64,000 nucleotides of DNA from Escherichia phage FV3. Shown here piece by piece: positions 14,055 through 41,856 of this stretch. Made by a program: the position numbers and the translations under genes. The stretch lies in sequence record NC_019517.1; one strand, written 5' to 3'. Each line of letters begins with the position of its first letter. Position 1 is the first letter of the stretch. The notes beneath the pieces are model-generated. The model worked only from the letters and a program-made list of their open reading frames with translations, was not told the DNA's origin and did not search any database.

Positions 14055-17000
14055 TTAACGAGAAAAGGTTGCGTAGGCTTCTAGACGATACTGCTGGTCA
14101 CCAGGGAACATAACACCTATAGAGGCTGTCCCTAGAATCCTGCCTTCCTTTCCAGACTCCATTCTGAACCCTACCCATCCTGAACTCCTTGCAGCCTCGA
14201 TGTTGTCGCTATACCCGAAAGTGGCAAGATCGTCAACACCAGCTCCAAACAGCAACTGAAGCTGACTTCTCGGAAGCCCTATAATTTCAGGAATATATGC
14301 ACCAAAGTACACCATCTGCCCTACCTTAGGACCGCTGCCGTACTCCATCGGCTTGCTTGTAGAGAAAGTCTTCATACCAGAAGTCCCTGCCGGATTAGGG
14401 TATGCCCCGTTTGTTGCTGTACCTATCCACATTCTCCACTGTGGTGTCATCTGTTTGACAGTAAAAGATGTTGAAGACGTTTTGCGCCCTGCATCATCAG
14501 TAGCTACAAACGTTATAGTGACATTACCAGGAGCTTTAAATGTTACCAGTCCTGTGGTAGCATCCACTGTTGCAATGTTGGTATTACTACTTTCCCAAGT
14601 CTTTCTGATTCCTGGCACATTGGAAGGGGTAATAGAGGGTTCCTGCATCTGCAGTTTACCACCTACAATCCCTATCCCGTTACCTGGATTATACAACGCA
14701 CCAACCTCGTCTACAATGTTACCTGCCTTGAGGCTGTACTTTTTAGAGAAGTTGTAAGTGCCGTTATATGTGTGTGTCCCTGAGAAGGTTACATCTGCCT
14801 TACCGTTGGAGATGCAAACCAAAGCATACTTCCTGTCAGGCAACTGTGCCCCAGTTTCTGGGTGAGTTTTACCAACCTGGAACACACTCGGGTCAGTGGA
14901 GTCATGGCTATCACTAATGGAGTTTGGGCCACCCATCAGCTGTGACAAACAATTCCTTACCCATGTCCAGTTATTATCACTGGAGAAGTCCACAGTCAAA
15001 TCGAATACAACCCACTCATTTGGCTTCCATACAGGAGTTGTAATCAACTTACCAACACCTCCACCCTGAAGGGTTGGAGACTGTTCAGTGATCAGGGCAG
15101 AGTATGCCAGAGTGCCTAACTGCATGGTCTGGCTTGCTGTCCTCACTACCTTAGAATCAACATCTGTGAAGTTGTTGATGATTTGGAATGTACCATAAGT
15201 GTTTTTACAGGTAATTCTGGCGTTCAGTGTGTCAATCTTCCTCACATCTGCCATAGCAGTGTTAGACACAGAGAAGTCAGAAGCTCTAGCCGAGTTTGCT
15301 GCAACAGCTGGATCAACGTTGAGAGTTGCGTTGAACTGGCAGGCAGGAGTAACCAGTAGCTTGTTATCACCTATTTGCTTCCATGAAACACTTTGAACAG
15401 GGAGATTCCATTTAATACCTGAGAAAACTTTAGCAACCCTTGGTCCCAGAGCTCCAGTCCTGTTGTCTTTACAGCTCATGGACATGGTGATCGTTGACGG
15501 AGTGGCCTGACCAAACAATTGCTGTGCTTTTGCAGAGGACATGGTGTAGAAATTGTCCTTAACAAACTCATCAGCCGCTAACGATCCGTCAGATCTCCAC
15601 CATTGCACCTGGTAGCCTGTCTTATCCCAGCCACCAACCTGCTTCAAGTCCTCCCAAGAGATTTCCAGATCCCCAGTGGTAGGGTTGATCGCCGCAGTTC
15701 CCGGTGTTCCAGATGACCATATTGGGATATCGAACCACGCTGGTTTAACAGACTGCACTGCGTTAGGTCCTATTGCAGCAGCAAGTTGTTGACCCATCAA
15801 TACGCGAGTATCTTTCACATAACCCCACTCGATCATAGACCCAGAGTAACCCTCTTTCTTGTAGGCAGGGGATCCGTTCAAATGGATAAGTCGGCTTGTG
15901 CCAAAGTTATATGCCCCGCCACCATTATCATCTGCAAAATTGTATATGATTCTATCCCTAATATCTTTCCATGCCCTACCGCCAATCTCATAGTCATGGT
16001 CATAGCATCTTTGCAGCGTTGTCCAGCAGATGATTGCCATCCTTCTACCGTTACTGAAGCCGAAAGCTTGATCGTTAAGTTCTCTCCACAAGTAGCAGTT
16101 GGTGGTCCACATGGCTCTGTGAATGTTGTACCAGTTTATAGATTTGGCAGAGTTGTTCCACTGAGTTCCGGGTAATTCAGGCCATACTGCATTAACCAGC
16201 ATGTCCTCTGTCCCTGCATCTATCAAGAATCCTCTCACCTTCTTACCCATACCTACTCTGTCTTTAGCAATCCATGAGCCAAACAATCTCAGTTTTGGAC
16301 CATAAACATCCTCTTCGCGATGCTCAAGAGAAACATACTTTAGATATACCGTAGGGTCACCGTAGGTACCATCACAAACACTCTTATGCATGTTCTCACC
16401 AAGGTCCAGACGGATACCTGTGAGAGTTTTGGTATCATCTGTGAACTTATCTGTCAAATCAAACTCGTACCACCACCACCCGGCTCCAAGTAAAACTTTC
16501 TTACAGCGCTTAGAGTCTGTGTCGGATATTCTTTTATCCCCTGCATATGGTGAGTCTGCAAACTGGTAGTGCAGAGCAACTTCAAAAGGATGTGTGGATG
16601 TTCCGTTTTCTGCAAGAACTTGCTTCCCGATCAGATCGCATTTAATAATCATCACGACACGTTTGTACCCCCAGGTTAACGGAACAACAAACGGATATCT
16701 CCCTCCATCCATATTAGCATGTATAGCTGCGAAATTTATGTACGGGTCAACAGCATTACCTAGAGTTTCAGGTCCAGGAATCATCTTGTACTTCTTGACC
16801 TGACCCATAATATAGTCACTGCCATAGGTTGCAGCCTCGAAGCAAGAACCACTATCAGGCAGTTCACCAGGTCCCCAGAATATTGCTCCGGAACAGTTGT
16901 AGAACCACTTGTTAGGATCATAGTTGTTCTTGAAGGTCTGAACCTCGTTTGCCTGCTTCAACAAGAAAACATGAGTATCTGTGAAGATTGCAGGATTCAC

Positions 17001-19688: not shown

Positions 19689-19736
19689 TGTGTTCTCCAG
19701 ATAAGAAAACCGCCCCGTCAGGAGCGGTCAGATATA

Positions 19737-22901: not shown

Positions 22902-23216
22902 TTACCTTTTACTATGCTCTACAAGCATGTGTAAAATCTTTTGCACATCGGCTCTGATACCGGAGACATCTGTCCTGACATCTTGCTTAAGGTCGTTAAT
23001 ATCGGCCTCTAGCTTACTTAACCGGGTCTCGATAATGGAATCAAGTCTATCTTTTGTAACCATGCTATTTTTCACTAAAATGAGGTCTTTCTCCAGCTCA
23101 TCCAGCCTCTTGGAAATGCCTTTCCATTTGGTGTGCCACTGGTTGAAAGCCCATACACAGATCGGGACAACGGTACCCATGCAGATACCGTACAATGCCG
23201 CCAAATCCAACTCCAC
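22902..23216 (-). CDS. Small N-terminal-TM, coiled-coil protein (104 aa)
   Basis: Hydrophobic N-terminus LAALYGICMGTVVPICVWAF followed by a charged heptad-rich region. Confidence 0.4.
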   Translation of the reverse strand: MELDLAALYGICMGTVVPICVWAFNQWHTKWKGISKRLDELEKDLILVKNSMVTKDRLDSIIETRLSKLEADINDLKQDVRTDVSGIRADVQKILHMLVEHSKR

Positions 23217-24879: not shown

Positions 24880-26952
24880 TTATGAGAAGTCTGGCGGGAC
24901 AACATCTTCTACATACCCTTTCAGAGCAACCTGCCCCATATGAAGCACGGTAGAATCTCTGGCGGTAACAGTGATGCTGTCAGACATTACTTGCGGGTAT
25001 GCCCACACATACTGTTTTACCTCAGGGTATCTATACTCTATGGTTGCCATGTTTCCGCAGATACATCTCCATAAAAATTCTTGGTAATTCCTGGTTGGGT
25101 CGTAGCCATATACCGGAGCAAGCTCTTTGCTAGGAACGAACCCTGCAAGGTATTGTATTTCAGACGGTTGCCAACCTAACTTAACGATAGGTATGTTTAC
25201 AGACTCTTTTGCCTTTTCAATACCCCCCTGCATCACCCAATCGTAGCACTCAGTGCAGAAGAAATCAAGAGCACCTGCTTCCTTTTTATATTGGTCAGCA
25301 AGGTTCAGCTTTTGCGTAAGCTCGGTTTCCATAATGGTCGGAAAAAACAGCAAAGCTGTCATCTGAGCCGATGCAGCGTGTGCTTTTATTGCCTTTGAAA
25401 TAGCTGCAATACGAGCTCCAAGCTTACCACGACAAAATGCTACATACTTGTCATAAACACCGCCAGTCTTAGGATCGTCAATAGTCCCAATGTCTAGTGC
25501 ATATTCACCAGTCTCATCATAAAACGCCTGTTTTGTAGGGTAGTCATAAATACAAGGCCTACGAGTATCGGTATTGAACCACCACCACGGTTCACCAATC
25601 TGCATAATTACTGGCAGGTTGTTTCTCATAGCGGCTGATGCAAAATTCTTAAATACTGCAGTAAGGAAATTCATACCCTCTTCAATGGTCGGAGACAAGA
25701 GGTAACTACAAGGCGTATAGCCTGTTTTAGCATAGTTATCGTTCCAATCTCTCTGGGTCCATTCCAACGGACAGGCATCGCTATAAAGCTCAAAGCTTAC
25801 AGACTGCATAACGTCGAAGTCGTGTCGCTTGGCATTATACATAAAGTCATCGTGCCATTTATAAGCTGCAGCGTTTAGAGCCCCTGTCCTGTTTATAGAC
25901 CATTGGGTTCCGGACCATGTGTAATCATAATAATGGCTCATACCAACATAATGGTTTATGGTTCCGGTATAGCCTAGACGCTTGATATTGCTCAACACCC
26001 TTAAAGGAGATACGTTCCACATATCGTCATATGCTGTGCAGATCCCAACGTCGTGCTCTTTCACCTGGATATTGTTAAGTTGCATCATCTTCCAGCCTGT
26101 GTCCGGCTGAAGCAGATCTAGACGCAACTCGCACTCTACATTTTCCGTTCTTGGGTCTGTGCTATTACTTACCCAATCTTTAGGCATGAGTGGTATTAAA
26201 ATCCTTCTCACCTGCCGAGGATCAACACCCATCATGTTGTTGTTCTGGTCCATCCCGACGCAGTCCTCGAAATCAATATGAATTTCTGCAACATTCTTAT
26301 CCTCTGAGATGCTGACAGCATATTGAGCTAAAGGAACATAGATGATTGTGCCGTCAACAAGGTCTACAGTCATAATCATCTTTTCAGGGGTGGAGAAGTT
26401 GCTGGCATTGGTTATTGACATTCTGAACCAAAGCTTGGTGTTTCTCATCTCGTAGTGATCATCAAATCCAATGCCGAAATGGTCATATTTGTCAACTGTT
26501 TCCCAAATGCACCCAGCCATGCCTCCATATGTTCTTGACACTAAACGGTTAATACAGCAGTTATTATCCGCAACAATACAGGTGCTTTCAGTCTGCTGTG
26601 TGGTTGTAACCCAATATCTTGGGTGAAACATTCTCTCCTCAACGGTATCCCAAGATATTCTGTCAAGATTCTCATCTGAAACTATTGTACATTTCGCTCT
26701 TTGTGTTCCAATCATAACCCCTTGGGAGTTTGATGAAAACTCCATAAAGAAGCTTCTTGGCAACCTGTTTGGCAATTTGTCAACAATTTCTACAGGAATC
26801 TCAATACTGGTTGCCCCAACCGGGATAGTTACATCGCCCTCAACATGATCATAATCCCTACCTGGAACGGCAGTATCTTGAACTGTGCGGTAATGAAACC
26901 GTGCAGCCATTGTAGAGTAATCACGGTAAGGTTTAAAAACAGCTGTTGCCAT
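24880..26952 (-). CDS. Large tail-associated protein (690 aa), possible enzymatic (depolymerase-like) domain
   Basis: N-terminal Calx-beta/Ig-like segment (GDVTIPVGATSIEIPVEIVD); Trp/Tyr-rich C-terminal region; immediately upstream of fibre paralog A. Confidence 0.4.
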   Translation of the reverse strand: MATAVFKPYRDYSTMAARFHYRTVQDTAVPGRDYDHVEGDVTIPVGATSIEIPVEIVDKLPNRLPRSFFMEFSSNSQGVMIGTQRAKCTIVSDENLDRISWDTVEERMFHPRYWVTTTQQTESTCIVADNNCCINRLVSRTYGGMAGCIWETVDKYDHFGIGFDDHYEMRNTKLWFRMSITNASNFSTPEKMIMTVDLVDGTIIYVPLAQYAVSISEDKNVAEIHIDFEDCVGMDQNNNMMGVDPRQVRRILIPLMPKDWVSNSTDPRTENVECELRLDLLQPDTGWKMMQLNNIQVKEHDVGICTAYDDMWNVSPLRVLSNIKRLGYTGTINHYVGMSHYYDYTWSGTQWSINRTGALNAAAYKWHDDFMYNAKRHDFDVMQSVSFELYSDACPLEWTQRDWNDNYAKTGYTPCSYLLSPTIEEGMNFLTAVFKNFASAAMRNNLPVIMQIGEPWWWFNTDTRRPCIYDYPTKQAFYDETGEYALDIGTIDDPKTGGVYDKYVAFCRGKLGARIAAISKAIKAHAASAQMTALLFFPTIMETELTQKLNLADQYKKEAGALDFFCTECYDWVMQGGIEKAKESVNIPIVKLGWQPSEIQYLAGFVPSKELAPVYGYDPTRNYQEFLWRCICGNMATIEYRYPEVKQYVWAYPQVMSDSITVTARDSTVLHMGQVALKGYVEDVVPPDFS

Positions 26953-27638
26953 TAACCCTCCTGTCTAGTTGCGTTCACTGTAATACTTTCACAATAAATA
27001 GTTGTGGTGTCCCAATCAGGTCTTACGTCAGGAACATATAGCAAAGTAGCCAACCCGCCAACACCGAACTGGTTTTCTTCCCACACCGACCCGAAGCCGA
27101 GAGCTGTAGAGTCTCCTTCAAAACCAAAAGCTTGCCCTTGCGACTCTGTAAGGCGCAAATGGCAAGGTAATGGCAGCATATCTAAGATCTGGTCGATAGA
27201 CTGCAGTATGTCAAAGCAGGTTTTTCTAATGTTTATGTCAAACCTGAAGTTGTCTCCTTTCCACGTATCGAAATTGTCTCTTCCGAACAATTGTCGCAAG
27301 GTGGAGATGACATCTTCACGAGTCCCACCCCTTGATGCTGCTGCTTGCTGAATAACCAGAGTAGCACGAAAATCAGCATCTGAAAGCCCATTCCGAAGAA
27401 TACCGAGTTGATTACCAACTTCGTCAAGGTATCTTCCGCTGGCATTGTTAAGCAGTCTTCCTTCAGCCAAACCTACCAGCATCTTATCAACATTCTCCAA
27501 CCTTTTAAGGTACACAGTTAAGAATGTGACTAAATTAACCTTCTCAGCCAGAAAATCTCCAGGCAGGTAGTCAAGACCTCCCTGAACAAAATCTGGCAGA
27601 GTGTGGATGTGGTTGACATCCGACTTAATCTCTGCCAT
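26952..27638 (-). CDS. Putative baseplate/tail protein (228 aa; gpI-like by position)
   Basis: Synteny downstream of the J-like gene; no strong motif. Confidence 0.35.
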   Translation of the reverse strand: MAEIKSDVNHIHTLPDFVQGGLDYLPGDFLAEKVNLVTFLTVYLKRLENVDKMLVGLAEGRLLNNASGRYLDEVGNQLGILRNGLSDADFRATLVIQQAAASRGGTREDVISTLRQLFGRDNFDTWKGDNFRFDINIRKTCFDILQSIDQILDMLPLPCHLRLTESQGQAFGFEGDSTALGFGSVWEENQFGVGGLATLLYVPDVRPDWDTTTIYCESITVNATRQEG

Positions 27639-27649: not shown

Positions 27650-29140
27650 TTAAATAGTTTGTTGGAAAGTTATATTACTTTCGTCGAGGTCAAACACCTC
27701 GGTCATGTTTGCAACAATATCGTTTGTAGTGTAAGCTTCATCAGAGGCTCCCACAGGTTTAACTTGAATTACCAGTCTGTTAAATCTGCCTATTGACACA
27801 GCAGCTGATGCAGCACCTACCAATTGGATGTTGTACAGCGTATCGGCAACATCCAGGCCGTTAACAACCTGCAAAAGAGCCTCTGTAATGGCATCTTTTT
27901 CGGTAGTAGAAAGCGCAGCACCTGAGTAGGTAATTCTCATATCCAGGCGGTAAGTGTTTGCCTTAGAATAATAAATCCTTTCAGTCTGACCGTCTGATGT
28001 GGTAATATCGTAGAAGATATTCCCATAAGTTCTGTTTGTGCAAGCTATGGTTTGATACAGCGCCTGGCAGATATCCTCTGTTGCACCACCAAACACCACC
28101 ACTTGAAACTTATAAGGTGGTATGCCTTTCGCATCCGTTTTATCGGTGTTGTTAGAGAACACTCTTACTTTCTCAACACCTTTCACCTCGCTTACAGCGC
28201 TAAGGATTGCAGGACGGGTAGCTTTAGATGCTAACTGTTTAGTGCTGGAAGCTCTTAAGCGATACTCTGAGTCCTTCTCAACATCCCTGCCCTCATTGAA
28301 TCTTTCTCTGTTGGTAAGCTTGATAAATCCGCTGGGAGTAGGCGACATTGTTGTCACGGTTTCTGCCTCTCTTGACAGCTCACCAGCCTCGTTAGCTATA
28401 ACATCTAAGGTGATAGTTCTTTCACCTACAATCGGAGATACTCTGAAATCTACTCTGCTATTAAGACCAACTTGATCAAGATTCGAATTGTATCCTATCC
28501 ACAACGTTCCTGTCAACATATCTATCTGAATTAGATCGTCGTTCAACAAGGTTGTATTATCGACAATGAATTGCTTAATCTCGCCGTAAAAGCTTGGCAA
28601 ATCAGAAGAGTCCAGAGACTTATCGGTTAGAACCAGACTTTTTGTTTTGATACTTCCATCCGTCTGGTTGGTAATTTGAAAGTTGTATTTACCGATTCTT
28701 AGATCTGGAGCGTTTATTCTGTGAGCAATAAGATTTCCCGCCACCTGCACGTCGCTGCTAAGAACAAAGTTGCCACTATCCAGCGTGTAGGTTTTGGAAT
28801 CATAAATCATATTGTACGGCACAGTTGTGTTAATTGTCAACTGGCAAGTACCTGATGATTTAGAACGGCCTCTCCGGTAAATACCTTGCCTTCCAAGAAG
28901 TTCATCAAGGTAAATACCTTCTGCCCCGTACAGCGTCTGCGATGCGTATACAGATGCTGCCATAAGAATAAGTTGATATTCTCGCTCGTTGAAGATAGTG
29001 GTCAGCTTATCTGCAACTGAGTTACTTTGTACGTTGAAGTTTTCGCCAAAAGCACGGATCAGGCTTTGCTTAGTTTCAACGATTAGGTCATTTAGGGTTG
29101 GTATAACGAAACCAGCCTCTGTCAATCCATACTTAGCCAC
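27650..29140 (-). CDS. Putative baseplate J-like protein (496 aa)
   Basis: Size, position and N-terminal region loosely resembling P2 gpJ. Confidence 0.4.
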   Translation of the reverse strand: MAKYGLTEAGFVIPTLNDLIVETKQSLIRAFGENFNVQSNSVADKLTTIFNEREYQLILMAASVYASQTLYGAEGIYLDELLGRQGIYRRGRSKSSGTCQLTINTTVPYNMIYDSKTYTLDSGNFVLSSDVQVAGNLIAHRINAPDLRIGKYNFQITNQTDGSIKTKSLVLTDKSLDSSDLPSFYGEIKQFIVDNTTLLNDDLIQIDMLTGTLWIGYNSNLDQVGLNSRVDFRVSPIVGERTITLDVIANEAGELSREAETVTTMSPTPSGFIKLTNRERFNEGRDVEKDSEYRLRASSTKQLASKATRPAILSAVSEVKGVEKVRVFSNNTDKTDAKGIPPYKFQVVVFGGATEDICQALYQTIACTNRTYGNIFYDITTSDGQTERIYYSKANTYRLDMRITYSGAALSTTEKDAITEALLQVVNGLDVADTLYNIQLVGAASAAVSIGRFNRLVIQVKPVGASDEAYTTNDIVANMTEVFDLDESNITFQQTI

Positions 29141-29207: not shown

Positions 29208-29238
29208 GCATAAAAATAAACCCCGCCGAAGCGGGGCT
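29208..29238 (-). terminator. Rho-independent terminator (minus strand), CCCCGC-UUCG-GCGGGG hairpin plus U-tract
   Basis: Same hairpin core as at 2501-2516; followed on the minus strand by TTTATTTTTAT; just downstream of the 1279-aa gene. Confidence 0.55.
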
Positions 29239-29245
29239 TTAAAGG

Positions 29246-32200
29246 TTAGTCGTGAGACTCGTTCCAAGGTCCCTGGAAGCTAGAGTTTGAACGACTAACT
29301 ATTACGGTTGGACAAGATATTGTAACTCCTGTCACGCTTGACGTTGACCATGGTGTGTATATCTCGACGATAATGTCTATGGTTTGTTCACCAAGACCTG
29401 TTATCCCTACCGCACACATGCCGTTGTTGTCGTTTCCGTACTTCTTACCTGCAAGGATTTGATGCCCGGCTATCCAAACGTTAAGCTGGGAGCCAGACAA
29501 GGTTCCGTTCAGTTTAAAGAAGAATGTTACGTTCTTACCTTGTCCTGAAACGTTGTCCACATATCTCCACCTCCAACGGCAAACCCTCTGCTGCGAGTTA
29601 TATACCGGAGGGCAGTCACCATAGGTCCTATGTGCAACGATTGCACCTTCGAACTGGTTAGCACGGATAACGGAAGCTTCTACACGTCCACGGAATGTAC
29701 CTCCTGTTGCATCTATGGTGCCTCTAAAGCTACCATTATTGGCATAAACATCTCCACGGAAGGTACCACTGGTGGCGTTAACTGCCCCTGTGAAGTTACC
29801 TGCACTAGCGTTGATATTACCTTTCACCCACACATCCATAAACTGGGCGTGCCCGTTCTTGTTAATATACCAACCGTATTTGTGGTACCCGTTGCCATCG
29901 TAGTTGTTAGACGAAATTTCTTGTGCAATCTTGGCAGAAGAGATCGTCCCGTTCTCTATAAAGGCATCTTTCAAGAACGCTTGGTTGTTCTTAATTGCGA
30001 AAGCAAGGGTTGCTGTTCCATTCCCAGGGTTGTATACCGCAAAGTTGTTTGCACTAACCATGAAGTATGATTGAACTTGGCCTCCAGAACCTTCCATGCC
30101 CAATTGGATACCTGCCACATACTTATTCCCTGCGGAGTCTACCTGTATTTTTGTGCCCCATTGAGCATTTACTTTGCCCTCTAAGTCGGTCACAGCCTTA
30201 GATGTTGTAGCCACTGCAGCTCTTAGCTCTGATACATCCCCAACATCATCAATGATCTCCTGCTTAGCAACAGCAAGTTCTTGACGAATAGCTGACGCTG
30301 TGCCGTTAATAAGATCCACAGTCGCTTTGTTGGTATCGGAGATTGTAGCGTCCAGTGCTGTTTTTGTGGAGGTCAGCTTACCATCCAAATCCGCAATCGC
30401 CTGTTTGTTGGTAGAAATCTCCCCACGTGCAGAAGTTATCTGCTCCGACAGTGCAGAGGTTTTCTGATTCAACAAATCTGTGGTGGCCTTGTTGGTATTG
30501 GCAATCAAGGTATTGAGATCAGTTTTTGCGGTAGTTATCTTACCATCAAGGGTGGTATAGTTCTTAGATACTGTCGCGTTTGTCTGACTGATCTTTTGAT
30601 CCAGAGTTTCAGAGGTCCTGTTGAGAAGATCCACTGTCGCCTGGTTGGTGCTTAAGATGCTTGCATCAAGTTCCGTTCTCTGGGTATTGATCTTGCCATC
30701 TAGAGTTTTATCTCCGGCAAGGTATCCGCTCTCCACACCACCTATTTGTTCTACCAACTCCCCTTTGGCTGCAACCAATTTCTCGTCCAAAGCCTCTGTC
30801 TTTTTGTTCAGAAGATCAGTGGTTGCTTTATTGGTTGTCTCAATCAGGGATGCCAGTCTTCCACTTTCGGTGTTCAGATCGTTGGTGAACTTGTTCTGTG
30901 CAGCAACAAGTTTCTTATCCAGCGCTGTGATATTGCCATTGACATCCTCAAACTTCTGAGTTGTATCTGTAACTACCGCGCCTATCCTATCCCCAAGTTG
31001 TTGGAATGCCTCATCTACCCTTCCGTCCATGTACTTGTTAAGTTCTGTGACACGATTTTCAACATCTTCAATAGAGGAATCTAAAGTGCTCATCAACTCT
31101 TTATAAGTCTCTGTCTTTTTAAATTCCGCATCTATTTGAGGCATCAAATCTTCAATAGAGGTGTAGCAGCGTGCAGCGCATTCTACAAACTGGGAGCTTC
31201 CAAAAGCGTTTGTGGTTCGAATATACCAATAATAAATCTTATCGTTCTGCAGACCTTCAGATGTCCAAGTTGAACCAACACCCATGCGGGTGGCTTTTGA
31301 AGTGACGGTTGCATCACTTGTGTCAGGCAACCTTGTCATACCAGATGTCCAAAAGTCATACTGGGTGCTTACACTTGCTAAGTCCCTGCTGTGTGGAATC
31401 AGGGTGATAGCAAAGTACCCCTGCTTAACTTCTACAGAAACCGGAGCTTCAGGTGCCTGAATGTTAAACTCGCAGTACGCTTCTGGAGATACACCACCTT
31501 TATAAGATGTTGCAACCACGGTTGCTGTGTATGACCCTTTGGTCAATCCCTCTACGCGGACAAACTGCTCGACTGTTTGTGCTGTCCAAATAATCTCTCC
31601 GTTCTTTCTTACCTGCACAATGTTTTGAGCATAAGTCCCAACGTTGTCCCAAGCCAAAACACCGTGAGTTACTTCCCCAGCTTGAAGAACAGAGTATCTA
31701 AAGTTTTGCGGTTGAGCTACACCGGATGGAGATACCGGGATATCTACATCCCCAGAGTCTGGAAGTTGCCCTGTGGCATCATTCCACTCTTTAGCATCTT
31801 GACGGAGTTTTACCTTGACACCACCCTTTTTGGTGAACTCCCATTCAAGAACCCTCATCTCTTGACCCACTATACCAATACTTGGAAGGTCCATCGTAAC
31901 GTAACGCCCAGGCTTAAATTTAAAACCACGCATATTGCAGGTTACTTCAATAATCCTGCCAGCTCTGGCACGTCTTAAGAATATTGCGGAAACACGCTGA
32001 GCCTGATAAGGACTGGTAACAAAGCGATAATCTATATCAATTATCTTTCTTTCTCCGTCCTTCTCCACCCACTCAGGCACGAACACTGATGGGAAGTCTG
32101 TTTCAGAATACCCTTTGGTTGGACTAGTGAATCTACCAGTTATTGTGTTCGATCTTTTGTCGAAGGAGGCTTCCGGATAGATCTTAACCTCACCGCAAAC

Positions 32201-33085
32201 ACAGTCCTCACTCAGTGTCATTGTTGCTGGGCCATAGTATGCACCTACCAGCAGACCATACTTACCAGCTACATAGCTAAGATCTGCACCACAAGCTTTC
32301 AGCATTTCTGCCATAATACTTGCTGGTGCTTCATCCGTGTCGAACTCACCATTAATGGTGTAACGACTCTCACTGGTTCCGTCTGCGTTTCTTACAGCCT
32401 CGTCGCATATGTTGGCAGCCTCCTTGAAGGACTCCCAGTTGATGGTTTCGTCAGGACATTTAAGGTATGTTCTTAAATAGTCCAGAATCACCAAGGCAGC
32501 GTTATTGGTATACACCTCTTTACTGGTGCGAGGATCATAGCATTTTTTACCAACCTTGATGAGTGTAACGTTTGGCAACCCAAAAGGGAACTTGTTAGGG
32601 TCAAACCTGAAGCTAACACGCAGCCAGCTGATCCCTCTACCTATCATGTCCGGTGACCACGATGGGCAGTGTGTACCCATGAAAGGATCAGAGGTTTTTC
32701 TGTCGTTATGTAGCTCCCACGATACCAAATCCCCATACGAGGAAATAGGATTACCGTCGATAAGTATATCTTCTATACCTTCCAGAGAGTGATTGGCAAG
32801 AACAATAGCACAATGAAGGGTTCTGTCTCTATCCTGCTCCAAAAACGCAAGCAATCCAGATGTGCGTGTCTTACCATACACTACAGAACAAGGTGCAGCA
32901 GAAGATCTAAGAAGCTTTTGCCTATCTTGCTGACTTCTGTAAGATTTGTTACCCTCGAAAATCTTATCCAGAGTTCTGGTGGTAACAGTGTTCAGGCTGT
33001 CAGCCAGAGCTGCCTTGGATGCGTTCCAGTCATAGCTTGAAGATCTTGCAGAAGCAACGATGTTATCAATCATTGCAATTGGCAT
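29246..33085 (-). CDS. Large tail fibre protein (1279 aa) with internal coiled-coil repeats and C-terminal beta-helix-like repeats
   Basis: Four degenerate TNKATTDLLN repeats; C-terminal G-x-F-(R/T)-G repeats. Confidence 0.5.
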   Translation of the reverse strand: MPIAMIDNIVASARSSSYDWNASKAALADSLNTVTTRTLDKIFEGNKSYRSQQDRQKLLRSSAAPCSVVYGKTRTSGLLAFLEQDRDRTLHCAIVLANHSLEGIEDILIDGNPISSYGDLVSWELHNDRKTSDPFMGTHCPSWSPDMIGRGISWLRVSFRFDPNKFPFGLPNVTLIKVGKKCYDPRTSKEVYTNNAALVILDYLRTYLKCPDETINWESFKEAANICDEAVRNADGTSESRYTINGEFDTDEAPASIMAEMLKACGADLSYVAGKYGLLVGAYYGPATMTLSEDCVCGEVKIYPEASFDKRSNTITGRFTSPTKGYSETDFPSVFVPEWVEKDGERKIIDIDYRFVTSPYQAQRVSAIFLRRARAGRIIEVTCNMRGFKFKPGRYVTMDLPSIGIVGQEMRVLEWEFTKKGGVKVKLRQDAKEWNDATGQLPDSGDVDIPVSPSGVAQPQNFRYSVLQAGEVTHGVLAWDNVGTYAQNIVQVRKNGEIIWTAQTVEQFVRVEGLTKGSYTATVVATSYKGGVSPEAYCEFNIQAPEAPVSVEVKQGYFAITLIPHSRDLASVSTQYDFWTSGMTRLPDTSDATVTSKATRMGVGSTWTSEGLQNDKIYYWYIRTTNAFGSSQFVECAARCYTSIEDLMPQIDAEFKKTETYKELMSTLDSSIEDVENRVTELNKYMDGRVDEAFQQLGDRIGAVVTDTTQKFEDVNGNITALDKKLVAAQNKFTNDLNTESGRLASLIETTNKATTDLLNKKTEALDEKLVAAKGELVEQIGGVESGYLAGDKTLDGKINTQRTELDASILSTNQATVDLLNRTSETLDQKISQTNATVSKNYTTLDGKITTAKTDLNTLIANTNKATTDLLNQKTSALSEQITSARGEISTNKQAIADLDGKLTSTKTALDATISDTNKATVDLINGTASAIRQELAVAKQEIIDDVGDVSELRAAVATTSKAVTDLEGKVNAQWGTKIQVDSAGNKYVAGIQLGMEGSGGQVQSYFMVSANNFAVYNPGNGTATLAFAIKNNQAFLKDAFIENGTISSAKIAQEISSNNYDGNGYHKYGWYINKNGHAQFMDVWVKGNINASAGNFTGAVNATSGTFRGDVYANNGSFRGTIDATGGTFRGRVEASVIRANQFEGAIVAHRTYGDCPPVYNSQQRVCRWRWRYVDNVSGQGKNVTFFFKLNGTLSGSQLNVWIAGHQILAGKKYGNDNNGMCAVGITGLGEQTIDIIVEIYTPWSTSSVTGVTISCPTVIVSRSNSSFQGPWNESHD
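30300..30860 (-). repeat. Four degenerate tandem DNA repeats (135-185 nt spacing) inside the 1279-aa fibre gene
   Basis: Core GATC(C/A)AC(A/T)GT(C/T)GC(C/T)T(T/G)(G/A)TTGGT recurs at about 30313, 30494, 30628 and 30814 on the plus strand, encoding TNKATTDLLN-type segments. Confidence 0.5.
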
Positions 33086-33522
33086 TAATACCTCCAGACA
33101 TCAACAACGATAGAATCTTTCATATCGAACGTAAAGATCCCTTTATCACCTTTCGCCCAAATCTGGTTGTTCCAGAACACACCAGCGGTGAGGCCGTTCA
33201 GACCTTCGAAAATAACAATATCACCACGCTGAACCTGTTTAGGAGTATCCAGTCGAGTCAAAAAGAGATCAAAAACAGTAGGCAGGTGTGTGGTTTTGAA
33301 ACGGAGCATGCACCATCTCTTGCTTTCCAACTCTGTTTTATACGTTCCTTCAAAGTTAGAAAGAAAATCTGTCCCGTATTGGGCATCAACACACTTAGCC
33401 GCAAAAGTGCAACAATCGTGGAATCCCCATTCAAACGGGACGGTGGCTTCTTCGTCAAATACTTTCCACAATTTTTCTTGCCAGTCTACTAAACGAGGGT
33501 GTGTGCTCATTAAACCTCCCAA
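33085..33522 (-). CDS. Hypothetical tail/baseplate-associated protein (145 aa)
   Basis: ORF in structural operon; overlapping junctions. Confidence 0.4.
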   Translation of the reverse strand: MGGLMSTHPRLVDWQEKLWKVFDEEATVPFEWGFHDCCTFAAKCVDAQYGTDFLSNFEGTYKTELESKRWCMLRFKTTHLPTVFDLFLTRLDTPKQVQRGDIVIFEGLNGLTAGVFWNNQIWAKGDKGIFTFDMKDSIVVDVWRY

Positions 33523-34076
33523 ATGATCGGGCGGCTCGCCACCTGATCCACATATTTAAAAAATCTGTCATTATCGTTTCTTGAGCTATGGCTTTCCTCT
33601 GTGTATCGGTAAGGAAAACCTCTTAACCAGCTGTTGAAGATGGAAGAGATGGATATGGACAAAGCACTATTCTCCCCTGTCTGAATAGCCATGTCCGTTA
33701 TAAGGCCGTCAAACAAGCCATTAGTTGTAACAGGCAAACCATTCTCCATAGCGGTGATATACAACGTGGCACGGCAACCAGAATACTCAGTCTTCAGAAG
33801 ATCACCTACATACTTGGGATCAAACCCGTTCAATGTTGCTACCACAGATCCGAAGTTGGTGGCATCTTTCTCAGACACAGCAGTCAATGTTGCTGATCCA
33901 CCTATCCCTATGAAATGTTGACCCTCAATCACTACAACACCAGTTCCTGAGCACACCCTGACAGTACCTGTTGGCAGCTCTAGCTTTGCAGCAATTAAGA
34001 TCTCAACACCATCAAGCTCTAGCTTTTCAAGAAATAAATTATCTAATGGCGCTCTTATCATCTTAGAAATCCTCAA
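33510..34076 (-). CDS. Hypothetical tail/baseplate-associated protein (188 aa)
   Basis: ORF in structural operon. Confidence 0.4.
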   Translation of the reverse strand: MRISKMIRAPLDNLFLEKLELDGVEILIAAKLELPTGTVRVCSGTGVVVIEGQHFIGIGGSATLTAVSEKDATNFGSVVATLNGFDPKYVGDLLKTEYSGCRATLYITAMENGLPVTTNGLFDGLITDMAIQTGENSALSISISSIFNSWLRGFPYRYTEESHSSRNDNDRFFKYVDQVASRPIIWEV

Positions 34077-34653
34077 AGAAGTTGATAACTATATTGTCAC
34101 CTTTCTGCATAGCATCAACCTTTTGCTTAATTTTATAAAGATCTCTGATATGAAATCTACCCTTCGGAGATTGAGTTATTATCTTCATGGTATCCCCTGC
34201 GGCAATAGGTTTCCTAAGTCTTGGAGATATGTTTATAACAGCAGCCCCAACACCATCGCTTCGTACTGAGGCTGTCACCACTTTCAACTCATCATTGACA
34301 GATATTTTATCCCCAGCTCTGGCTATATCCCTGTTAGGCTCCCAACCAACCGTCTTCAAAAAATCGTCGTTACCAGTCGGTCCGAGAGCGATTGGCTCGT
34401 TGGAGGTAACTGAATGCCCATAAGCCTTGATAAGAAAAATGTTCCCATCTTTGTAAACCTGATCAACAAAGCTTTTGAGCTCCAACAACTGAGACTCGCT
34501 GATATTGGAAACCGTCAAAGTGCCTTTCCAGTTAGGAGTGGCATAGGTGACTTTTTGCGTCTTACCTGTAAACGGGCTTTTAAATGTAACGATGTCTGCC
34601 AGTAACTCCAATCTAATATCTGGGAGGTATCTAGGCCTTTCCCATAAAAACAT
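34063..34653 (-). CDS. Hypothetical tail/baseplate-associated protein (196 aa)
   Basis: ORF in structural operon. Confidence 0.4.
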   Translation of the reverse strand: MFLWERPRYLPDIRLELLADIVTFKSPFTGKTQKVTYATPNWKGTLTVSNISESQLLELKSFVDQVYKDGNIFLIKAYGHSVTSNEPIALGPTGNDDFLKTVGWEPNRDIARAGDKISVNDELKVVTASVRSDGVGAAVINISPRLRKPIAAGDTMKIITQSPKGRFHIRDLYKIKQKVDAMQKGDNIVINFFEDF

Positions 34654-34711
34654 TGTGCCTCCAGGTTAAACAAATATGATAGTTATTTTACCAGATTTTA
34701 AGTTAATACGC

Positions 34712-34746
34712 AATACAAACAAAAAGCCCCCGCCGAAGCGAGGGCA
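34712..34746 (-). terminator. Rho-independent terminator (minus strand), GCCCUCGC-UUCG-GCGGGGGC hairpin plus U-tract
   Basis: Pairing is complete only on the minus-strand transcript (a U-G wobble where the plus strand has C-A); followed by TTTTTGTTTG. Confidence 0.5.
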
Positions 34747-34752
34747 AAACAG

Positions 34753-37700: not shown

Positions 37701-38553
37701 CAAGAGGTTGCCACGAGGCTGTTTGCTGGTTCCACATACCCCAACGGCCTGTTGCATCAAGCTGCAAGTACCCTGCCGTGTTTAAATCATCTCCAGCACG
37801 GATAACTGTTCTTGTTGGGTTGTTTGCCTCCAGGCGTTTAAATTCATCACGAAGTGCTATTCTTTTTGTTGTTGCTACACCGTTGGTTACTGCAATGGTA
37901 TACATGGCTCCAGAGGTAGCGCCACGGAAAATACCATCAACAGTCGTAGTATCACGACGAGATACCACACCGTTCAAAAATTTTTCACCAGCTGCTTCAG
38001 AAGGGTAGTTAGTAGTTCTTCCCTCTTCAATAACTGCAGGACCAACAAAGTTGACAAGGTGAATAACATCGCCTACAGTATGCACTGTACCAAAATCTAC
38101 CCGCTGTGCAAGTGCTTTAGCATCGTTGGCTGTCTGAACCGTAACATCCATTACATCCTGGACAGACTGCCCTTCGGCTGTCATGATCATAGATGCGCCA
38201 ATGGTAGACTCCAACTCCTCCCTTAAGGACGGGTCTGTATATACCATCCATGCAGCATCAGTAATCCCACCATCAGAGTACGGTGAAGACAGTGCAGGCA
38301 CAGTGTGTGGAAATTCGCCTTTCCAACGCAGGTAGAGGTCTTCCTCTTCGAAGTAGGCAAAATCCATTGGGCCGTTTAACTTACCACCTTCCTTAAAGGA
38401 GATTACATGAGAAACAGTCCCATCCACATGGACAACATCGCCAATTTTTACACGACGGGTCAGGTCTGGTTGTTGAACAACCAGGTAATCATCCTCTGTC
38501 ACTGCGGTAGTGGCAGGAAGAGATTCAATTCTGACAACTTTAATATCAGCCAT
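34753..38553 (-). CDS. Long tail fibre (1266 aa) with phage-fibre repeats and C-terminal intramolecular chaperone (peptidase S74-like) domain
   Basis: Repeated W-x-P-L...GGTGA motifs; C-terminal DLKDNIEVIPNALEAIRKMKGYTYTLKENGMPHAGVIAQEV typical of the auto-cleaving chaperone domain; conserved N-terminal anchor region. Confidence 0.65.
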   Translation of the reverse strand: MADIKVVRIESLPATTAVTEDDYLVVQQPDLTRRVKIGDVVHVDGTVSHVISFKEGGKLNGPMDFAYFEEEDLYLRWKGEFPHTVPALSSPYSDGGITDAAWMVYTDPSLREELESTIGASMIMTAEGQSVQDVMDVTVQTANDAKALAQRVDFGTVHTVGDVIHLVNFVGPAVIEEGRTTNYPSEAAGEKFLNGVVSRRDTTTVDGIFRGATSGAMYTIAVTNGVATTKRIALRDEFKRLEANNPTRTVIRAGDDLNTAGYLQLDATGRWGMWNQQTASWQPLAIEQGGTGARDAAGVRINIGAFYKQRAALEANFNINNLTGNQDGIYYQPMTANATEANGYPAGSGAGHLIVWQNNANGGTGCRQEYYPFSNVDVWYLRTYQANTNQWTAWQPMVRPRNDDTFRSHIGLGSRNSPTFGHLYLSQSSADVKSASGIVNGDKYSADGVLEHGYRIYSEVRNDNKTWLTVHLHKGAKGSETHRYLGFREDGVLDCPKYMQVGDLTGQLTNWGLGEWIRSSGAERGFWGSKKAAKMVVWDGGMDESGNGTLEWGVYNNRKAKWEPLPQAAGGTGATTLADAQNLFKVPIAAGVKDFLTLPRTAGMEDGKYYPIIVRTDPYYAPTTGTDITLVTRSSSGGDPMNCATLQCHYRTGGWTDRGDSFYGVVNFYQNEKALLGMVAPTRGKQEYVAFYAEARAFPISVYASRNVVEVFTREQDYQVGAVTDNQDGVKFVAPLQSADLNLAVLGDDNTNTRPVVDFKGTSGFYTGGGTQWHYIGTAERYAVMSKMNMPKVELWADGIDYLCYGSPRKALFSNAGFQCASDGTEDLTNGTFTSKCGNGAGLKGQAEFRSTPEAGQVIVRDVVGTAHRFYNFNKDGTFSAPGGFVCHTGGDWNNQFGSNNPSKIMAGNVNGPEGSMVVGGLSVAFSGNYAFQMAGRLDQLYTRSIEGGNHRAWNKVIQHRGQGLGINDLNDYKGDREGFYHQEANAQATPDRNYPCSRAGTLIVYRNYANVPESCVQEYISYLGEKFLRYGTTIGSVFTWGPWQQLGGKGITLKTAGSNLDPEFMIHTGGGTDVTNTSNMPSNTGRMYYWGNGADRKNVLEFQINDNATSASWVWHCGAKTDEAKSRYLAVNGVVECTAVSQSSDRDLKDNIEVIPNALEAIRKMKGYTYTLKENGMPHAGVIAQEVMEALPEAVGSFVKRKEVPGPTQDGIPLMTEERFYNVDYAAVTGLLVQVCREQDDRITSLEEQVKKLTEVVTELQGKLK

Positions 38554-38588
38554 TCTTTCTCCTGAAAGGGGGCAAACAGCCCCCTATG

Positions 38589-41186
38589 TTAAAGGTACAA
38601 TCCACGGTATTGAGCATAAAGTCCCAGACCGCGAAGGATTTCGCCAGAGTGATAGCCTACCGGATCAGAAACTGCCCAGCAGCCGTTTAAAACATTATCC
38701 CCGTTAATGAAGTGGTGCTTTTGCAGTAACTTCACACAGGCTTCTACAACAATATCTATTTGAGGTATTGTCTCTGAATACCCGCAAAGACCTAGCCAGC
38801 AGCAACCTGCAAGCCATTCACCTACCACCCACATCCTGTCACCTCTGTCTTGATAAGAATATCCTCCTGAGGTGTTAAAGTCTGTAGGGAGATTTCCGGA
38901 ATGAGATGACTGGAATCTGTTGAGGAACCATGCCCATTTCTGGCAGAACAGGAACAGTCTTTCGTCAACAGGTTCTTTATGTTTCTTAAGCTCATATAGT
39001 GTGCGGCACGCAGCAACAAAGGCTCTTGATTGGAGTTTAGAGTTATCTACCATCTCCCACCAACCAGTCAACCCTTCATTACCCCTCTGCCATACGTAGC
39101 GGGATGCAACTGGTCCTTCTGTTTTAAATGTGTTATTATACCAAACTTGGGAGTCGTACATAAATCCAATTGTATTTGCCAATCTTTGACGATCTATGTT
39201 TTCCGCACCCATACAGTAGACTACCGGATATTGCATTCCGGGATAGGGCCAATTTGGCCTTTCCTCTAGAAGATAATTTTCCTTATCTATCACCTTTCCG
39301 GCAGGGAACACACCTGGAGTGTGTCTGTATGCGCCTTGCTTGTAGTTTCTGACATAGCAATCACCAACCTTGGCGGTTGATTCTGTCTTGCTTGCCATCC
39401 ATACACTAAACCAGATCAGATAAGCATCTCTATCTGCAACATAAAATTGCGGCAGCGTGTTGACGCAATACAGATCGAACAAGCCATTGCCTATCTGCCT
39501 GTCGCTCAGACTGAAATCTACAGAGGTAATTCCTTTAGGGTTGGCAAAGAAAGGTTTAATCTCATCTTCTGTGTGATGAGGTTGTGTTGGATCTAGTTTA
39601 AAATCCCCTAGGGTAAGAGTTTCTGTTATCCATTGTCCGTTAGTGGCATATAGATCAGCATACCATAACCAACGGTCTTTGTCAAGAAATTTGACCCTTA
39701 CCATCTCATCATCTGATCGATAAGTTACTGAGTTTAAAGAAATCTCTCTTCCAAAATTGAAAGTTACTTTGCCTCTTACTATGTTGCAACGGGTGAAGTT
39801 GTCGGAGTGGTTGTAAATGTCGGTATCATACTGCATACTAACACTAGCGCCACCGCTTACGGCAATGTTTTCCTCTTTTGGCAAGAGATACGGGTTACCG
39901 TCTTTACCAACCACCTCTACGAAATCAGTAACTTTGGCAACTGTCTCTGTTACTTCTGACCCTCCAAAAGGGACCCCTATCCTATACTGTTTTTTGTTAT
40001 TGTTGCCATCATTAAGGATGAAATGTGGCTGGAACAGAACCCCCTCTCCTCCGAAATTCATAACAATTTCAGCATCTCTGCCTATCTTGTATGTAGTCCC
40101 TTTTTGGATTATTTCGCAAGGCTGGCGTGCGTTCATTCTAAAATTGATATACCCGTCGCTGTCCCTACTCATGACAGGAACTGTTCCTGCAACGAGACAA
40201 GTACCATCTGTGAACGGTGCCTTAATCAACGTGGTCTTTCTAAACAACTTGTCGTAGGCATTTATATCACTGAAATTAAGCAACTTGTTGTAAGACTGTT
40301 TAAACGCTGTGTAATACTTTTCCTCGCCTGTCAAAGTGTAGAGTTGATAACAAGCGTCACACCACATTTCTTCCCCGTCCAACTCTGGGGCTTGATTGTC
40401 TGCAACCACATTTATAGGGTTTACAATTACAGGGGATCCAGCAGGTATCACCGATCCACCCTGCTCTTGTGGCAATCTCACACAGTAGGTTACTTTGTGG
40501 CTGCCTGTAACACCCTTATCCTGCAGTTGGATTGTGCCGAACTCTGCAGACGTATGACCACTGTCGGCTATGCTACCGTTGGCCCAATAGCGGTTACCAT
40601 CCCATGCTATATACCACTCAACCCACCAACTCAATCCAGATGTTGTCCAATTTGGGTTAGCATCTGTGCCGCCGTAAACATCAGAGTCTACAGTGTTTCT
40701 TCCTAGCACACCGTTATACGCTTGGAATGCCTTGTCTAGGTATTCACCCCATGTCGGAGATCCAGCTGGGATTTTTCCTCTACCGTTGGTAAAAGACACC
40801 ACTACATCTTTAAACCCACCATGTGATGGAACCCCGTCTGTGGATAATGGGTAGTGGGACAATCTTTGCATTTTACTTTCTACTGCATATGCACCCAGAA
40901 GGTGACTGTTGTAGGCTTCCCAAGCTTCTTTGGCCCTATCTAGATAAAAATCGCTTTTCGATGCCCTGTATGCTTCAATGTATCCCAGAATCAACACAGC
41001 TTGAGCTTCATGCATTGCCCAATCATTATTTATCTTACTCCCTGACCAACCTGACGCTATAAGTCCATCCTGGTTTACCAGTTTGTTCTGCGTGGGGAGA
41101 TTGGTAATGCCTGTGTTATTATCGAGGCACTTCCTGTGCCCCTCAATCATCTGAAATACGTTATCAATATTGTGTTGAATACGCAT
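38589..41186 (-). CDS. Large tail-associated protein (865 aa), possible glycan-degrading tailspike body
   Basis: Trp/Tyr-rich enzyme-like composition; starts 1 nt after the stop of the anchor-domain gene. Confidence 0.4.
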   Translation of the reverse strand: MRIQHNIDNVFQMIEGHRKCLDNNTGITNLPTQNKLVNQDGLIASGWSGSKINNDWAMHEAQAVLILGYIEAYRASKSDFYLDRAKEAWEAYNSHLLGAYAVESKMQRLSHYPLSTDGVPSHGGFKDVVVSFTNGRGKIPAGSPTWGEYLDKAFQAYNGVLGRNTVDSDVYGGTDANPNWTTSGLSWWVEWYIAWDGNRYWANGSIADSGHTSAEFGTIQLQDKGVTGSHKVTYCVRLPQEQGGSVIPAGSPVIVNPINVVADNQAPELDGEEMWCDACYQLYTLTGEEKYYTAFKQSYNKLLNFSDINAYDKLFRKTTLIKAPFTDGTCLVAGTVPVMSRDSDGYINFRMNARQPCEIIQKGTTYKIGRDAEIVMNFGGEGVLFQPHFILNDGNNNKKQYRIGVPFGGSEVTETVAKVTDFVEVVGKDGNPYLLPKEENIAVSGGASVSMQYDTDIYNHSDNFTRCNIVRGKVTFNFGREISLNSVTYRSDDEMVRVKFLDKDRWLWYADLYATNGQWITETLTLGDFKLDPTQPHHTEDEIKPFFANPKGITSVDFSLSDRQIGNGLFDLYCVNTLPQFYVADRDAYLIWFSVWMASKTESTAKVGDCYVRNYKQGAYRHTPGVFPAGKVIDKENYLLEERPNWPYPGMQYPVVYCMGAENIDRQRLANTIGFMYDSQVWYNNTFKTEGPVASRYVWQRGNEGLTGWWEMVDNSKLQSRAFVAACRTLYELKKHKEPVDERLFLFCQKWAWFLNRFQSSHSGNLPTDFNTSGGYSYQDRGDRMWVVGEWLAGCCWLGLCGYSETIPQIDIVVEACVKLLQKHHFINGDNVLNGCWAVSDPVGYHSGEILRGLGLYAQYRGLYL

Positions 41187-41187
41187 C

Positions 41188-41856
41188 TTAGATAGCTCCT
41201 GCGATAATCAGTGCCCCGTACCAAGTTAACCCGTTGTCGTAGGTTTCTAACTTGAAAATATCTGTTGCACCAGCTGTAAATGTTAGGATAGGATCTCTTC
41301 CGTATGCCCATTTAACATTATCAGGCCAATAGACTTTGTTGCCGCCAGATGTCTGAGTAATGCATACGGTTATAGTTCTCGCCACCCCTTCAAGACCTTC
41401 TGTTTGATTCTCAAAAGAGATCGTGGTATTTGAAGTTAGTCGAACTTTAAAAGTGTCAGCAACTTCAAGATCCATATCAAGCTGACCACCAATAGACCCG
41501 TAATCAACTATTCTACCAGAAGAAGTTGCAGCAAGCTCTCCAAAAACAGACCAGGCTTTTGCAGACACACCCCCAGCACCCTCTACAGTAGAGTCTGGGA
41601 GGATTATTTTAGGATAATCCCCGTTCCACGTGTAGTAGCGCTTGGTCTCTGGGTCATAAGCAAAGTCCTTCTTGCTCTTAAGATAACCACCCTCTGTGAA
41701 ATAGACTATTTTAGTAATGCTGAGATCGTTGACAACATCGTCAATCTTAGCCTTTCTTGTCCCATCAGTCTGATTGACAACCAAGAAGTCATCACTCAGG
41801 ACTGTTTCTGCATCTTCAAGATCTGGAATTGGTATTGTAGGATAAGCTACAGCCAT
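41188..41856 (-). CDS. Tail fibre anchor/adaptor-domain protein (222 aa)
   Basis: N-terminus IPDLEDAETVLSDDFLVVNQTDGTRKAKIDDVV...FTEGGYLKSKKDFAY parallels the N-terminus of the 1266-aa fibre. Confidence 0.5.
   Translation of the reverse strand: MAVAYPTIPIPDLEDAETVLSDDFLVVNQTDGTRKAKIDDVVNDLSITKIVYFTEGGYLKSKKDFAYDPETKRYYTWNGDYPKIILPDSTVEGAGGVSAKAWSVFGELAATSSGRIVDYGSIGGQLDMDLEVADTFKVRLTSNTTISFENQTEGLEGVARTITVCITQTSGGNKVYWPDNVKWAYGRDPILTFTAGATDIFKLETYDNGLTWYGALIIAGAI

Follow-up and report, generated by a model that had tools for sequence, protein, structure and literature searches.

The interval from 14,055 to 41,856 in a 64,000-nucleotide stretch of Escherichia phage FV3 (sequence record NC_019517.1; this whole stretch is the window) is very likely the baseplate-periphery and tail-fibre locus of a Vequintavirus, that is, of an rV5-like contractile-tailed Escherichia coli phage, and codes for a multivalent adsorption apparatus borne on an ordinary myovirus baseplate. 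A megablast search with positions 14055–38000 (~24 kb) as the query matches 130 phage records, 102 of which cover at least 80% of it. DNA identity is 96.5% for EPFV3-03/2025, 92.8% for rV5_ev147 and 91.8% for the BASEL phage JohannBauhin. Gene order and strand are the same in both annotated relatives, with protein identities of 93–99.5%. The gene cluster is collinear and nearly unchanged in more than 100 sequenced rV5-like coliphages, so it is ordinary for the family, and the finding of a large multi-fibre arsenal is a correct rediscovery of a trait already known for Vequintavirus. The literature credits rV5-like phages with several fibre sets expressed together, broad recognition of hosts and a 'Swiss army knife' apparatus (PMC8594841, PMC3606486, PMC13450770). 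Kropinski et al. (2013) picked out rV5 gp30, 33, 37, 41 and 43 as fibre-like, and mass spectrometry (MS) of rV5 virions found gp30, 32, 33, 36, 37, 41, 42 and 43, with gp27 weak and gp28 and gp34 undetected (PMC3606486). Maffei et al. (2021) refer to the 'nanosized Swiss army knife' of phi92, mention a broad lysis host range and describe in the genus two short-fibre paralogues with a chaperone related to Mu S/U (PMC8594841, S5D). In a 2026 cryo-EM study, three sets of fibres are resolved on the phi92 wedge (PMC13450770). The 'proteomics' paper on an O177 phage contains no virion mass spectrometry. About 18 GenBank 'Campylobacter phage' records of 135–143 kb with Campylobacter jejuni as host (e.g. 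MG065644.1, MG065674.1, MG065655.1) carry the locus at ~90% identity; their host label looks doubtful.

A sequence-only reading of the window had listed eight large fibre or spike candidates of 1877, 581, 348, 346, 690, 1279, 1266 and 865 amino acids (aa) and a fibre-assembly gene, and all of these open reading frames (ORFs) are present on the minus strand (Table 1). It had left out the 222-aa gene, the wedge genes of 496 and 228 aa, the small tail-tip genes of 196, 188 and 145 aa, the 104-aa ORF and the terminators. The arsenal was called unusually large. This is true against most phages, the locus occupying ~20% of a ~137-kb genome, and is not true within the genus, where the many matching records make such a locus the norm.

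The genes are under strong purifying selection. In the comparison with JohannBauhin, the ratio of nonsynonymous to synonymous substitution rates (dN/dS) is 0.00–0.085 at dS 0.16–0.57 for all 18 genes. Homologues together with low dN/dS indicate functional genes rather than chance ORFs. Pfam domains across the locus include Caudo_TAP, Baseplate_J, the NCTSP TIM barrel, Phage_Tail_Tip/Ig_J, Peptidase_S74 and Tail_spike_N, and PHROG tail, fibre and baseplate families are matched throughout. An NCBIfam scan adds nothing except one intimin-type Ig match. Directly upstream, at 42.6–48 kb, lies a contractile-tail core comprising a tail assembly chaperone, tape measure, Dit_like tube initiator, Pam3_gp18 plug, hub and central spike, and a sheath-type gene is present (DUF3383 match). 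The fibre genes form a co-oriented minus-strand block. Its intergenic gaps at 34745, 29239, 22892 and 19729 hold strong intrinsic-terminator-like hairpins, and another ends the locus (14040). Because of the internal hairpins the block is not demonstrably a single operon, as the earlier term 'distal late operon' would have it. The 104-aa ORF, between the fibre chaperone and the second short-fibre gene, has a hydrophobic N-terminus followed by coiled-coil-like sequence. It matches phrog_5345, a family of unknown function, and is kept at 97–98% in relatives with a dN/dS of 0.035. At the equivalent position phAPEC8 has a 'lipoprotein' gene.

The 346- and 348-aa proteins are assigned by homology as paralogous Mu-S-type short tail fibres, of rV5 gp33 and gp30 type respectively. 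They share 42.7% identity over their full length, and both match phrog_4465 (E 6e-163 for the 348-aa protein). Residues 1–108 of the 346-aa protein match residues 1–111 of the phiTE short tail fibre (PDB 9cuy_c, E 2e-19), the part that is modelled on wedge protein 1 (PMC11972413), and its C-terminus matches the Mu fibre S (5yvq, E 4e-6). Between the two paralogues lies the 194-aa fibre assembly chaperone of the Mu U / lambda Tfa type (Caudo_TAP, E 1e-11; phrog_136, E 1e-36). Both short-fibre paralogues are contained in rV5 virions (PMC3606486). The 581-aa protein (rV5 gp28 type; phrog_4549, E 6e-250) is read as a tail fibre carrying the baseplate anchor of the phiTE long fibre, its residues 8–325 matching residues 15–345 of that fibre (PDB 9cuy_g, 'putative tail fiber', E 1.6e-76). 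The match spans the region modelled at the baseplate, where the bundle of N-terminal helices is joined by a sheath-initiator helix (PMC11972413). Its N-terminus also matches that of the phAPEC8 colanidase gp088, and its C-terminus that of gp087. The orthologue in phage W70 is abundant in virions (PMC11370258).

The 1266-aa protein (rV5 gp41 type) has the architecture of a long lateral tail fibre, with a putative Tail_spike_N anchor, a long shaft, a variable distal part and a C-terminal S74 intramolecular chaperone. Peptidase_S74 is matched with E 1.5e-16 at residues 1145–1196 and Tail_spike_N with E 1.8e-10; the family is phrog_6578, and PDB matches are to tailspike N-termini and the S16 long-fibre tip. 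Against O157 typing phage 14, identity falls to 51–77% in residues 900–1200 only, and this confined drop is the signature of a receptor-binding tip. The C-terminal ~170 aa including S74 (34753–35280 in the window) share 47% identity with the C-terminal end of gp25, the lateral fibre of JenP1, a second fibre-gene link between Vequintavirus and Queuovirinae, directly beside the tail-tip cassette described below. The 222-aa protein (rV5 gp43 type) is assigned from its matches as a small fibre or adaptor: it shows Tail_spike_N (E 3e-10), phrog_7760 'tail fiber' (E 6e-119) and PDB matches to tailspike N-termini. Its residues 8–105 are 38% identical to residues 7–105 of the 1266-aa fibre, and residues 109–222 are 42% identical to phAPEC8 gp098. 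rV5 gp43 is detected in virions (PMC3606486). The common Tail_spike_N may mean that the two proteins contest one attachment site or that one docks on the other, and is thus consistent with branching as well as with competition.

The 690-aa protein is probably a binder of the NGR surface glycan, as judged from its likeness to N4 gp65. It contains TIM-barrel_NCTSP (E 8e-80) and NCTSP_N (E 7e-13), with Calx-beta (E 1e-5) just under Pfam's cutoff, matches chain M of PDB 9lc0, 'Gp64' of the N4 tail complex (E 2e-24), and is 43% identical to phAPEC8 gp096. The NGR assignment of this type of protein is published (PMC11990801, bioRxiv 10.64898/2026.04.02.716166), and dependence on the NGR glycan (nfrA/nfrB/wecB) is reported in related Vequintavirinae (PMC8594841 and the same two sources) as it is for N4. 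Infection was found to require wecB and lipopolysaccharide (LPS) outer-core glucose (PMC8594841), wecB being later refined to the NGR glycan (PMC11990801). The 690-aa protein differs from its N4 counterpart in being much shorter than the 1381-aa 9lc0 chain 'Non-contractile tail sheath', in belonging to a contractile-tail baseplate and in having an N-terminal Calx-beta-like domain.

The 865-aa protein (rV5 gp42 / phAPEC8 gp097 type) is a conserved tail protein for which a low-confidence AlphaFold2 (AF2) model, resembling glycoside hydrolases, predicts a probable glycosidase-like domain: an (alpha/alpha)6 barrel into which beta-sandwiches are inserted. A PDB sequence search with it gave no useful match. 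It is conserved at 27–35% identity across very different myovirus groups and hardly varies within the genus. The 1877-aa protein (rV5 gp27 type) is probably a giant beta-rich tail-attached adhesin with CBM-like and Ig-like domains, an assignment of moderate confidence. Its first 197 residues are common to a phAPEC8 tail protein at the syntenic last position of the locus, Pfam finds one Big_2 domain, the C-terminal quarter is variable, and a low-confidence AF2 model gives CBM-like and RCC1-like hints. Its C-terminus matches phrog_215, of the category 'head and packaging'. It is the weakest case among the eight.

A fibre or tail role is thus supported by homology in seven of the eight large proteins; for the 1877-aa protein the structural evidence is weak. 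The sequence-only reading had proposed a branched multi-fibre apparatus and, as a possibility, a broad host range. Its core idea, several kinds of fibre on a probably branched apparatus that goes with broad host recognition, is right and established for this phage group. Eight independent fibres are not what the locus encodes, since two are paralogous short fibres sharing a docking domain, the 865-aa protein is a broadly conserved tail protein, the 1279-aa protein is part of a four-gene siphovirus tip cassette and support for the 1877-aa protein as structural is weak.

That cassette (29246–34653, minus strand) consists of genes for 196, 188, 145 and 1279 aa, collinear with gp17–gp20 of the Nonagvirus JenP1 (Nonagvirus/Seuratvirus; 196, 194, 138 and 874 aa), which are tail-tip genes placed after the JenP1 tape measure gene and distantly resemble lambda M-L-K-J. 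Identities to JenP1 are 33%, 39%, 48% and 50% in this order. The 196-aa protein is Dit-like (phrog_1302 'distal tail protein', E 4e-49; dN/dS 0.024), the 188-aa protein is a tail-tip protein in the lambda gpL position (phrog_2048 'tail protein', E 9e-68), and the 145-aa protein in the gpK position contains DUF6950 (E 8e-34). Permissive Pfam scans of the small cassette proteins and a PDB search with the 188-aa protein gave nothing extra and no useful match, respectively. The 1279-aa protein (rV5 gp37 type) contains Phage_Tail_Tip (E 2e-38), Ig_J_second (E 1e-30) and Ig_J (E 4e-5), with Ig_J and Phage_Tail_Tip shared with the JenP1 module, and matches phrog_31 'central tail fiber J' (E 1e-162) and lambda J (PDB 8iyk, E 3e-28). 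It is 50% identical to JenP1 J over residues 48–732 and 53% over 916–1078. Unlike JenP1 J, it has an extra coiled-coil repeat shaft and a different C-terminal 200 aa. Four copies of TN(K/Q)AT(T/V)DL(L/I)N at residues 751–918 mark a coiled-coil unit of ~50–60 aa (30330–30830 in the window). The allele of typing phage 14 is 1174 aa long, ~105 aa shorter exactly at the repeat block and 95–99% identical elsewhere, and FV3 has the long form. The J-like protein falls into two allele classes, 58 records at 95–99% and 56 at 80–90% identity, which probably reflect this ~105-aa shaft difference, not a change of tip.

The distribution of the cassette is narrow. By tblastn against a phage collection, 116 rV5-like records contain the 188-aa protein at an identity of at least 95%, and no record has it at 60–95%; below 60%, the matches listed are phages of ~20–85 kb, Queuovirinae siphoviruses first. 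An IMG/VR scan with an alignment of the 188-aa and JenP1 proteins returned only Queuovirinae-like contigs (~60 kb) and contigs at 39% identity, the value that rV5-like phages should give, and showed nothing intermediate and no further context. Among the phages examined the cassette is confined to rV5-like genomes, and phAPEC8 is without it. In JenP1 these genes accompany the tape measure and a non-contractile tube. In FV3 they lie 11 kb from the tape measure gene (45654–47993), between fibre and wedge genes, in a sheath-bearing phage with its own tube initiator, hub and spike. The wedge-family genes, split by the cassette region, are 12.7 kb apart here, and in Septuagintavirus W70 three wedge-family genes are adjacent (PMC11370258). 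Two similar terminator hairpins (29218–29239 and 34726–34745) flank the cassette. It is a possibility worth stating, though still short of probable, that a complete siphovirus tip cassette, closest to Nonagvirus/Seuratvirus, was captured once by Vequintavirus, inserted between the wedge genes and kept by purifying selection, and that it may assemble a tip-like Dit6-J3 complex on the contractile-tail baseplate as one fibre set. Not just the shaft is retained but also the Dit-like protein and the hub-side two-thirds of the J-like protein at its N-terminus, so that the complex may still be built; we predict that it would serve as one fibre set in a phage already having a tube initiator, hub and spike. 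rV5 gp37 is present in virions at 4.2% MS coverage (PMC3606486). In the literature searched we found no solved precedent for a Dit-J complex on a contractile-tail baseplate and no paper discussing the siphovirus cassette; automated GenBank annotations do show 'distal tail protein' and 'central tail fiber J'.

Three other explanations of the locus can be weighed against this picture. The cassette is foreign in type to a contractile tail, interrupts the wedge genes and has similar terminator hairpins at its borders, as might be seen in a decaying, non-functional remnant of siphovirus recombination or in an assembly artefact. This is very improbable, because 116 independent rV5-like records place the cassette identically, with at least 95% identity for the 188-aa protein, its dN/dS is 0.00–0.085 at dS 0.2–0.55, its four reading frames are intact and rV5 gp37 peptides occur in virions. 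Conservation and selection largely refute such an origin, and misassembly or contamination in particular is ruled out by this unchanged placement, shared by more than 100 independent genomes. The sequence-only reading had also suggested a possibly switchable host range; alternative fibres would then be expressed or exchanged by inversion, phase variation or targeted mutagenesis. Two paralogous short-fibre genes around a chaperone gene recall the invertible fibre segments of Mu and P1, and their C-termini resemble Mu S. However, the paralogues and the chaperone all lie on one strand, and both paralogues occur together in rV5 virions (PMC3606486). A repeat search of 13500–42600 found just two inverted-repeat pairs at chance level (24–26 nt, 77–83% complementarity) and no long direct repeats of the template/variable type, only short ones, and neither the locus nor the 6-kb flanks of two relatives contain an annotated invertase or reverse transcriptase. 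The claim of switching is not upheld, and a switch of this kind is very improbable.

A smaller arsenal is a better contender, although we think it doubtful. It would have three or four true receptor-binding fibres (the 1266- and 690-aa proteins, the short fibres and perhaps the 581-aa protein), with the 865-, 1279- and 1877-aa proteins serving in structure, as scaffold or as decoration and lacking receptor specificity. Conservation of the 865-aa protein across distant myovirus groups and its near-invariance in the genus are what core tail hardware would show, but its provisional model resembles glycoside hydrolases. Variation of the J-like protein lies in the number of shaft repeats and not at the tip, but this protein keeps Phage_Tail_Tip, a receptor-binding domain in lambda-type phages. 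Against the phrog_215 match and the weak MS support of the 1877-aa protein stand its tail-protein N-terminal anchor, variable C-terminal quarter and CBM-like domains. In favour of the smaller arsenal, published genetics with the BASEL phages suggest that Vequintavirus is effectively monovalent on E. coli K-12, using the NGR glycan and LPS outer-core glucose (PMC8594841).

Compared with rV5 and other Vequintavirus (gp27–gp43, Kropinski 2013; BASEL Bas48–59, Maffei 2021), FV3 has the same genes in the same order on the same strand with only allelic differences, and the variable genes are the same three, those for the 1266-, 1279- and 1877-aa proteins. phi92 and phAPEC8 (Stephanstirmvirinae; Schwarzer 2012; PMC13450770) have the same baseplate core and wedge and several co-expressed fibre sets. 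phAPEC8 has orthologues of the 865-aa (gp097) and 690-aa (gp096) proteins and of the short fibre with chaperone, and N-terminal anchors common with the 581-, 1266-, 222- and 1877-aa proteins. These two differ from FV3 in having endosialidase and colanidase spikes and only one short fibre, in lacking the Dit/L/K/J cassette, and in the place of the N4-like gene, which precedes the wedge genes instead of following them. The phAPEC8 endosialidase gp095 has no counterpart in FV3, and of the colanidase gp088 only the N-terminal anchor is matched. In phiTE (Certrevirus, Vequintavirinae; PDB 9cuy/9mjn; PMC11972413) the N-terminal baseplate-binding regions of the long and short fibres are homologous to the 581- and 346/348-aa proteins, whereas that phage is flagellotropic and has far fewer fibre genes and unrelated distal fibre parts. 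The fibres are modular, with N-terminal anchors common to phi92/phAPEC8- and phiTE-type phages and distal parts that differ; conserved anchors with unrelated distal parts, the usual evolution of such loci, make the locus a mosaic. Tail_spike_N is likewise N-terminal in CBA120 (TSP1-4) and G7C (gp63.1/gp66), but the distal parts are fibres in FV3 and beta-helix spikes in those phages. No XD-type branching domains were detected in the locus, and branching is suggested for FV3 only by analogy, fibre II of phi92 being attached at the base of fibre I (PMC13450770). The C-terminal Peptidase_S74 of the 1266-aa protein is that of S74-chaperone fibres of the endosialidase / T5 pb1 type. From the Mu S/U type FV3 has the S-like C-terminus and the Tfa-type chaperone, and for a fibre switch no significant inverted repeats were found in 13500–42600 and no invertase is annotated in relatives.

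Homology and the published genetics of relatives suggest a working order. Glycan-directed proteins would establish contact of a reversible kind and take the phage through the polysaccharide at the surface; these would be the 690-aa protein (NGR), the 865-, 1266- and 581-aa proteins, the 1279-aa J-like protein and probably the 1877-aa protein. The 346- and 348-aa short fibres, folded by the 194-aa chaperone, would then dock on the wedge and attach irreversibly to the LPS outer core. Engaged fibres would rearrange the wedge (496 and 228 aa) together with the sheath initiator, followed by sheath contraction. Several points weigh against a multivalent apparatus of this composition. There is no Vequintavirus baseplate structure, and gene-to-fibre assignment, copy numbers and branching are all inferred, as Maffei et al. 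also say (PMC8594841). The orthologues of the 581- and 690-aa proteins were undetected in the shallow rV5 MS, and gp27 rests there on three weak, mostly non-tryptic peptides (PMC3606486). Both AF2 models are of low confidence, which leaves the glycosidase-like and CBM-like folds provisional, and the receptor assignments come from relatives, not from FV3.

Table 1. Features of the FV3 tail-fibre locus, with positions in the window
Feature	Position	Strand	Basis or remark
Terminator-like hairpin ending the block	14019..14040	minus	GC skew sign flips at the same place
1877-aa ORF	14055-19688	minus	ORF listing
581-aa ORF	19737-21482	minus	ORF listing
348-aa ORF	21768-22814	minus	ORF listing
104-aa ORF, membrane-type	22902..23216	minus	phrog_5345
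194-aa fibre-assembly gene	23228-23812	minus	Pfam Caudo_TAP
346-aa ORF	23827-24867	minus	ORF listing
690-aa ORF	24880-26952	minus	ORF listing
228-aa baseplate protein, second wedge subunit, non-fibre	26952..27638	minus	phrog_4056 'baseplate protein', E 3e-103; 29% identity to phAPEC8 gp092
496-aa baseplate wedge protein, non-fibre	27650..29140	minus	Pfam Baseplate_J, E 2e-9; phrog_6; 31% identity to phAPEC8 gp093
Intrinsic-terminator-like hairpin 3' of the J-like gene	29218..29239	minus	Hairpin and repeat scan
1279-aa lambda-J-like gene	29246..33085	minus	Pfam, PHROG, PDB
145-aa DUF6950 gene	33085..33522	minus	Pfam
188-aa tail-tip gene	33510..34076	minus	PHROG
196-aa Dit-like gene	34063..34653	minus	PHROG
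Intrinsic-terminator-like hairpin between 1266-aa gene and tip cassette	34726..34745	minus	Sequence resembles hairpin 29218-29239
1266-aa ORF	34753-38553	minus	ORF listing
865-aa ORF	38589-41186	minus	ORF listing
222-aa fibre-type gene	41188..41856	minus	Its start is the interval end, 41856

Outside the locus, the sign of the GC skew switches at ~6 kb and again at ~14 kb, around a plus-strand block (6679–13954) that contains a DUF2201 metallopeptidase/VWA protein (7734–9227). Skew and orientation switches in rV5 at 6425 and 13675–13725 agree with these flips (PMC3606486). A seven-tRNA cluster lies at 61201–62013 on the minus strand (Pro, Met, Thr, Ser, Tyr and Arg); one of its members is a 99-nt call at 61446–61544, to which ARAGORN gives a four-base anticodon (atcc) and no amino acid.

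Few E. coli phages are isolated as commonly as rV5-like coliphages, which are candidate agents in therapy and biocontrol. The practical value of the present analysis is a per-gene map that separates anchors from distal modules, as needed in host-range engineering. Which gene builds which fibre set is a question acknowledged in the literature, and the siphovirus tip cassette sharpens it. If a Dit-hub-J complex does dock on the myovirus baseplate, it would stand as a clear example of a whole module moving from one tail type to another, and as a new route by which a receptor-binding device can be added.

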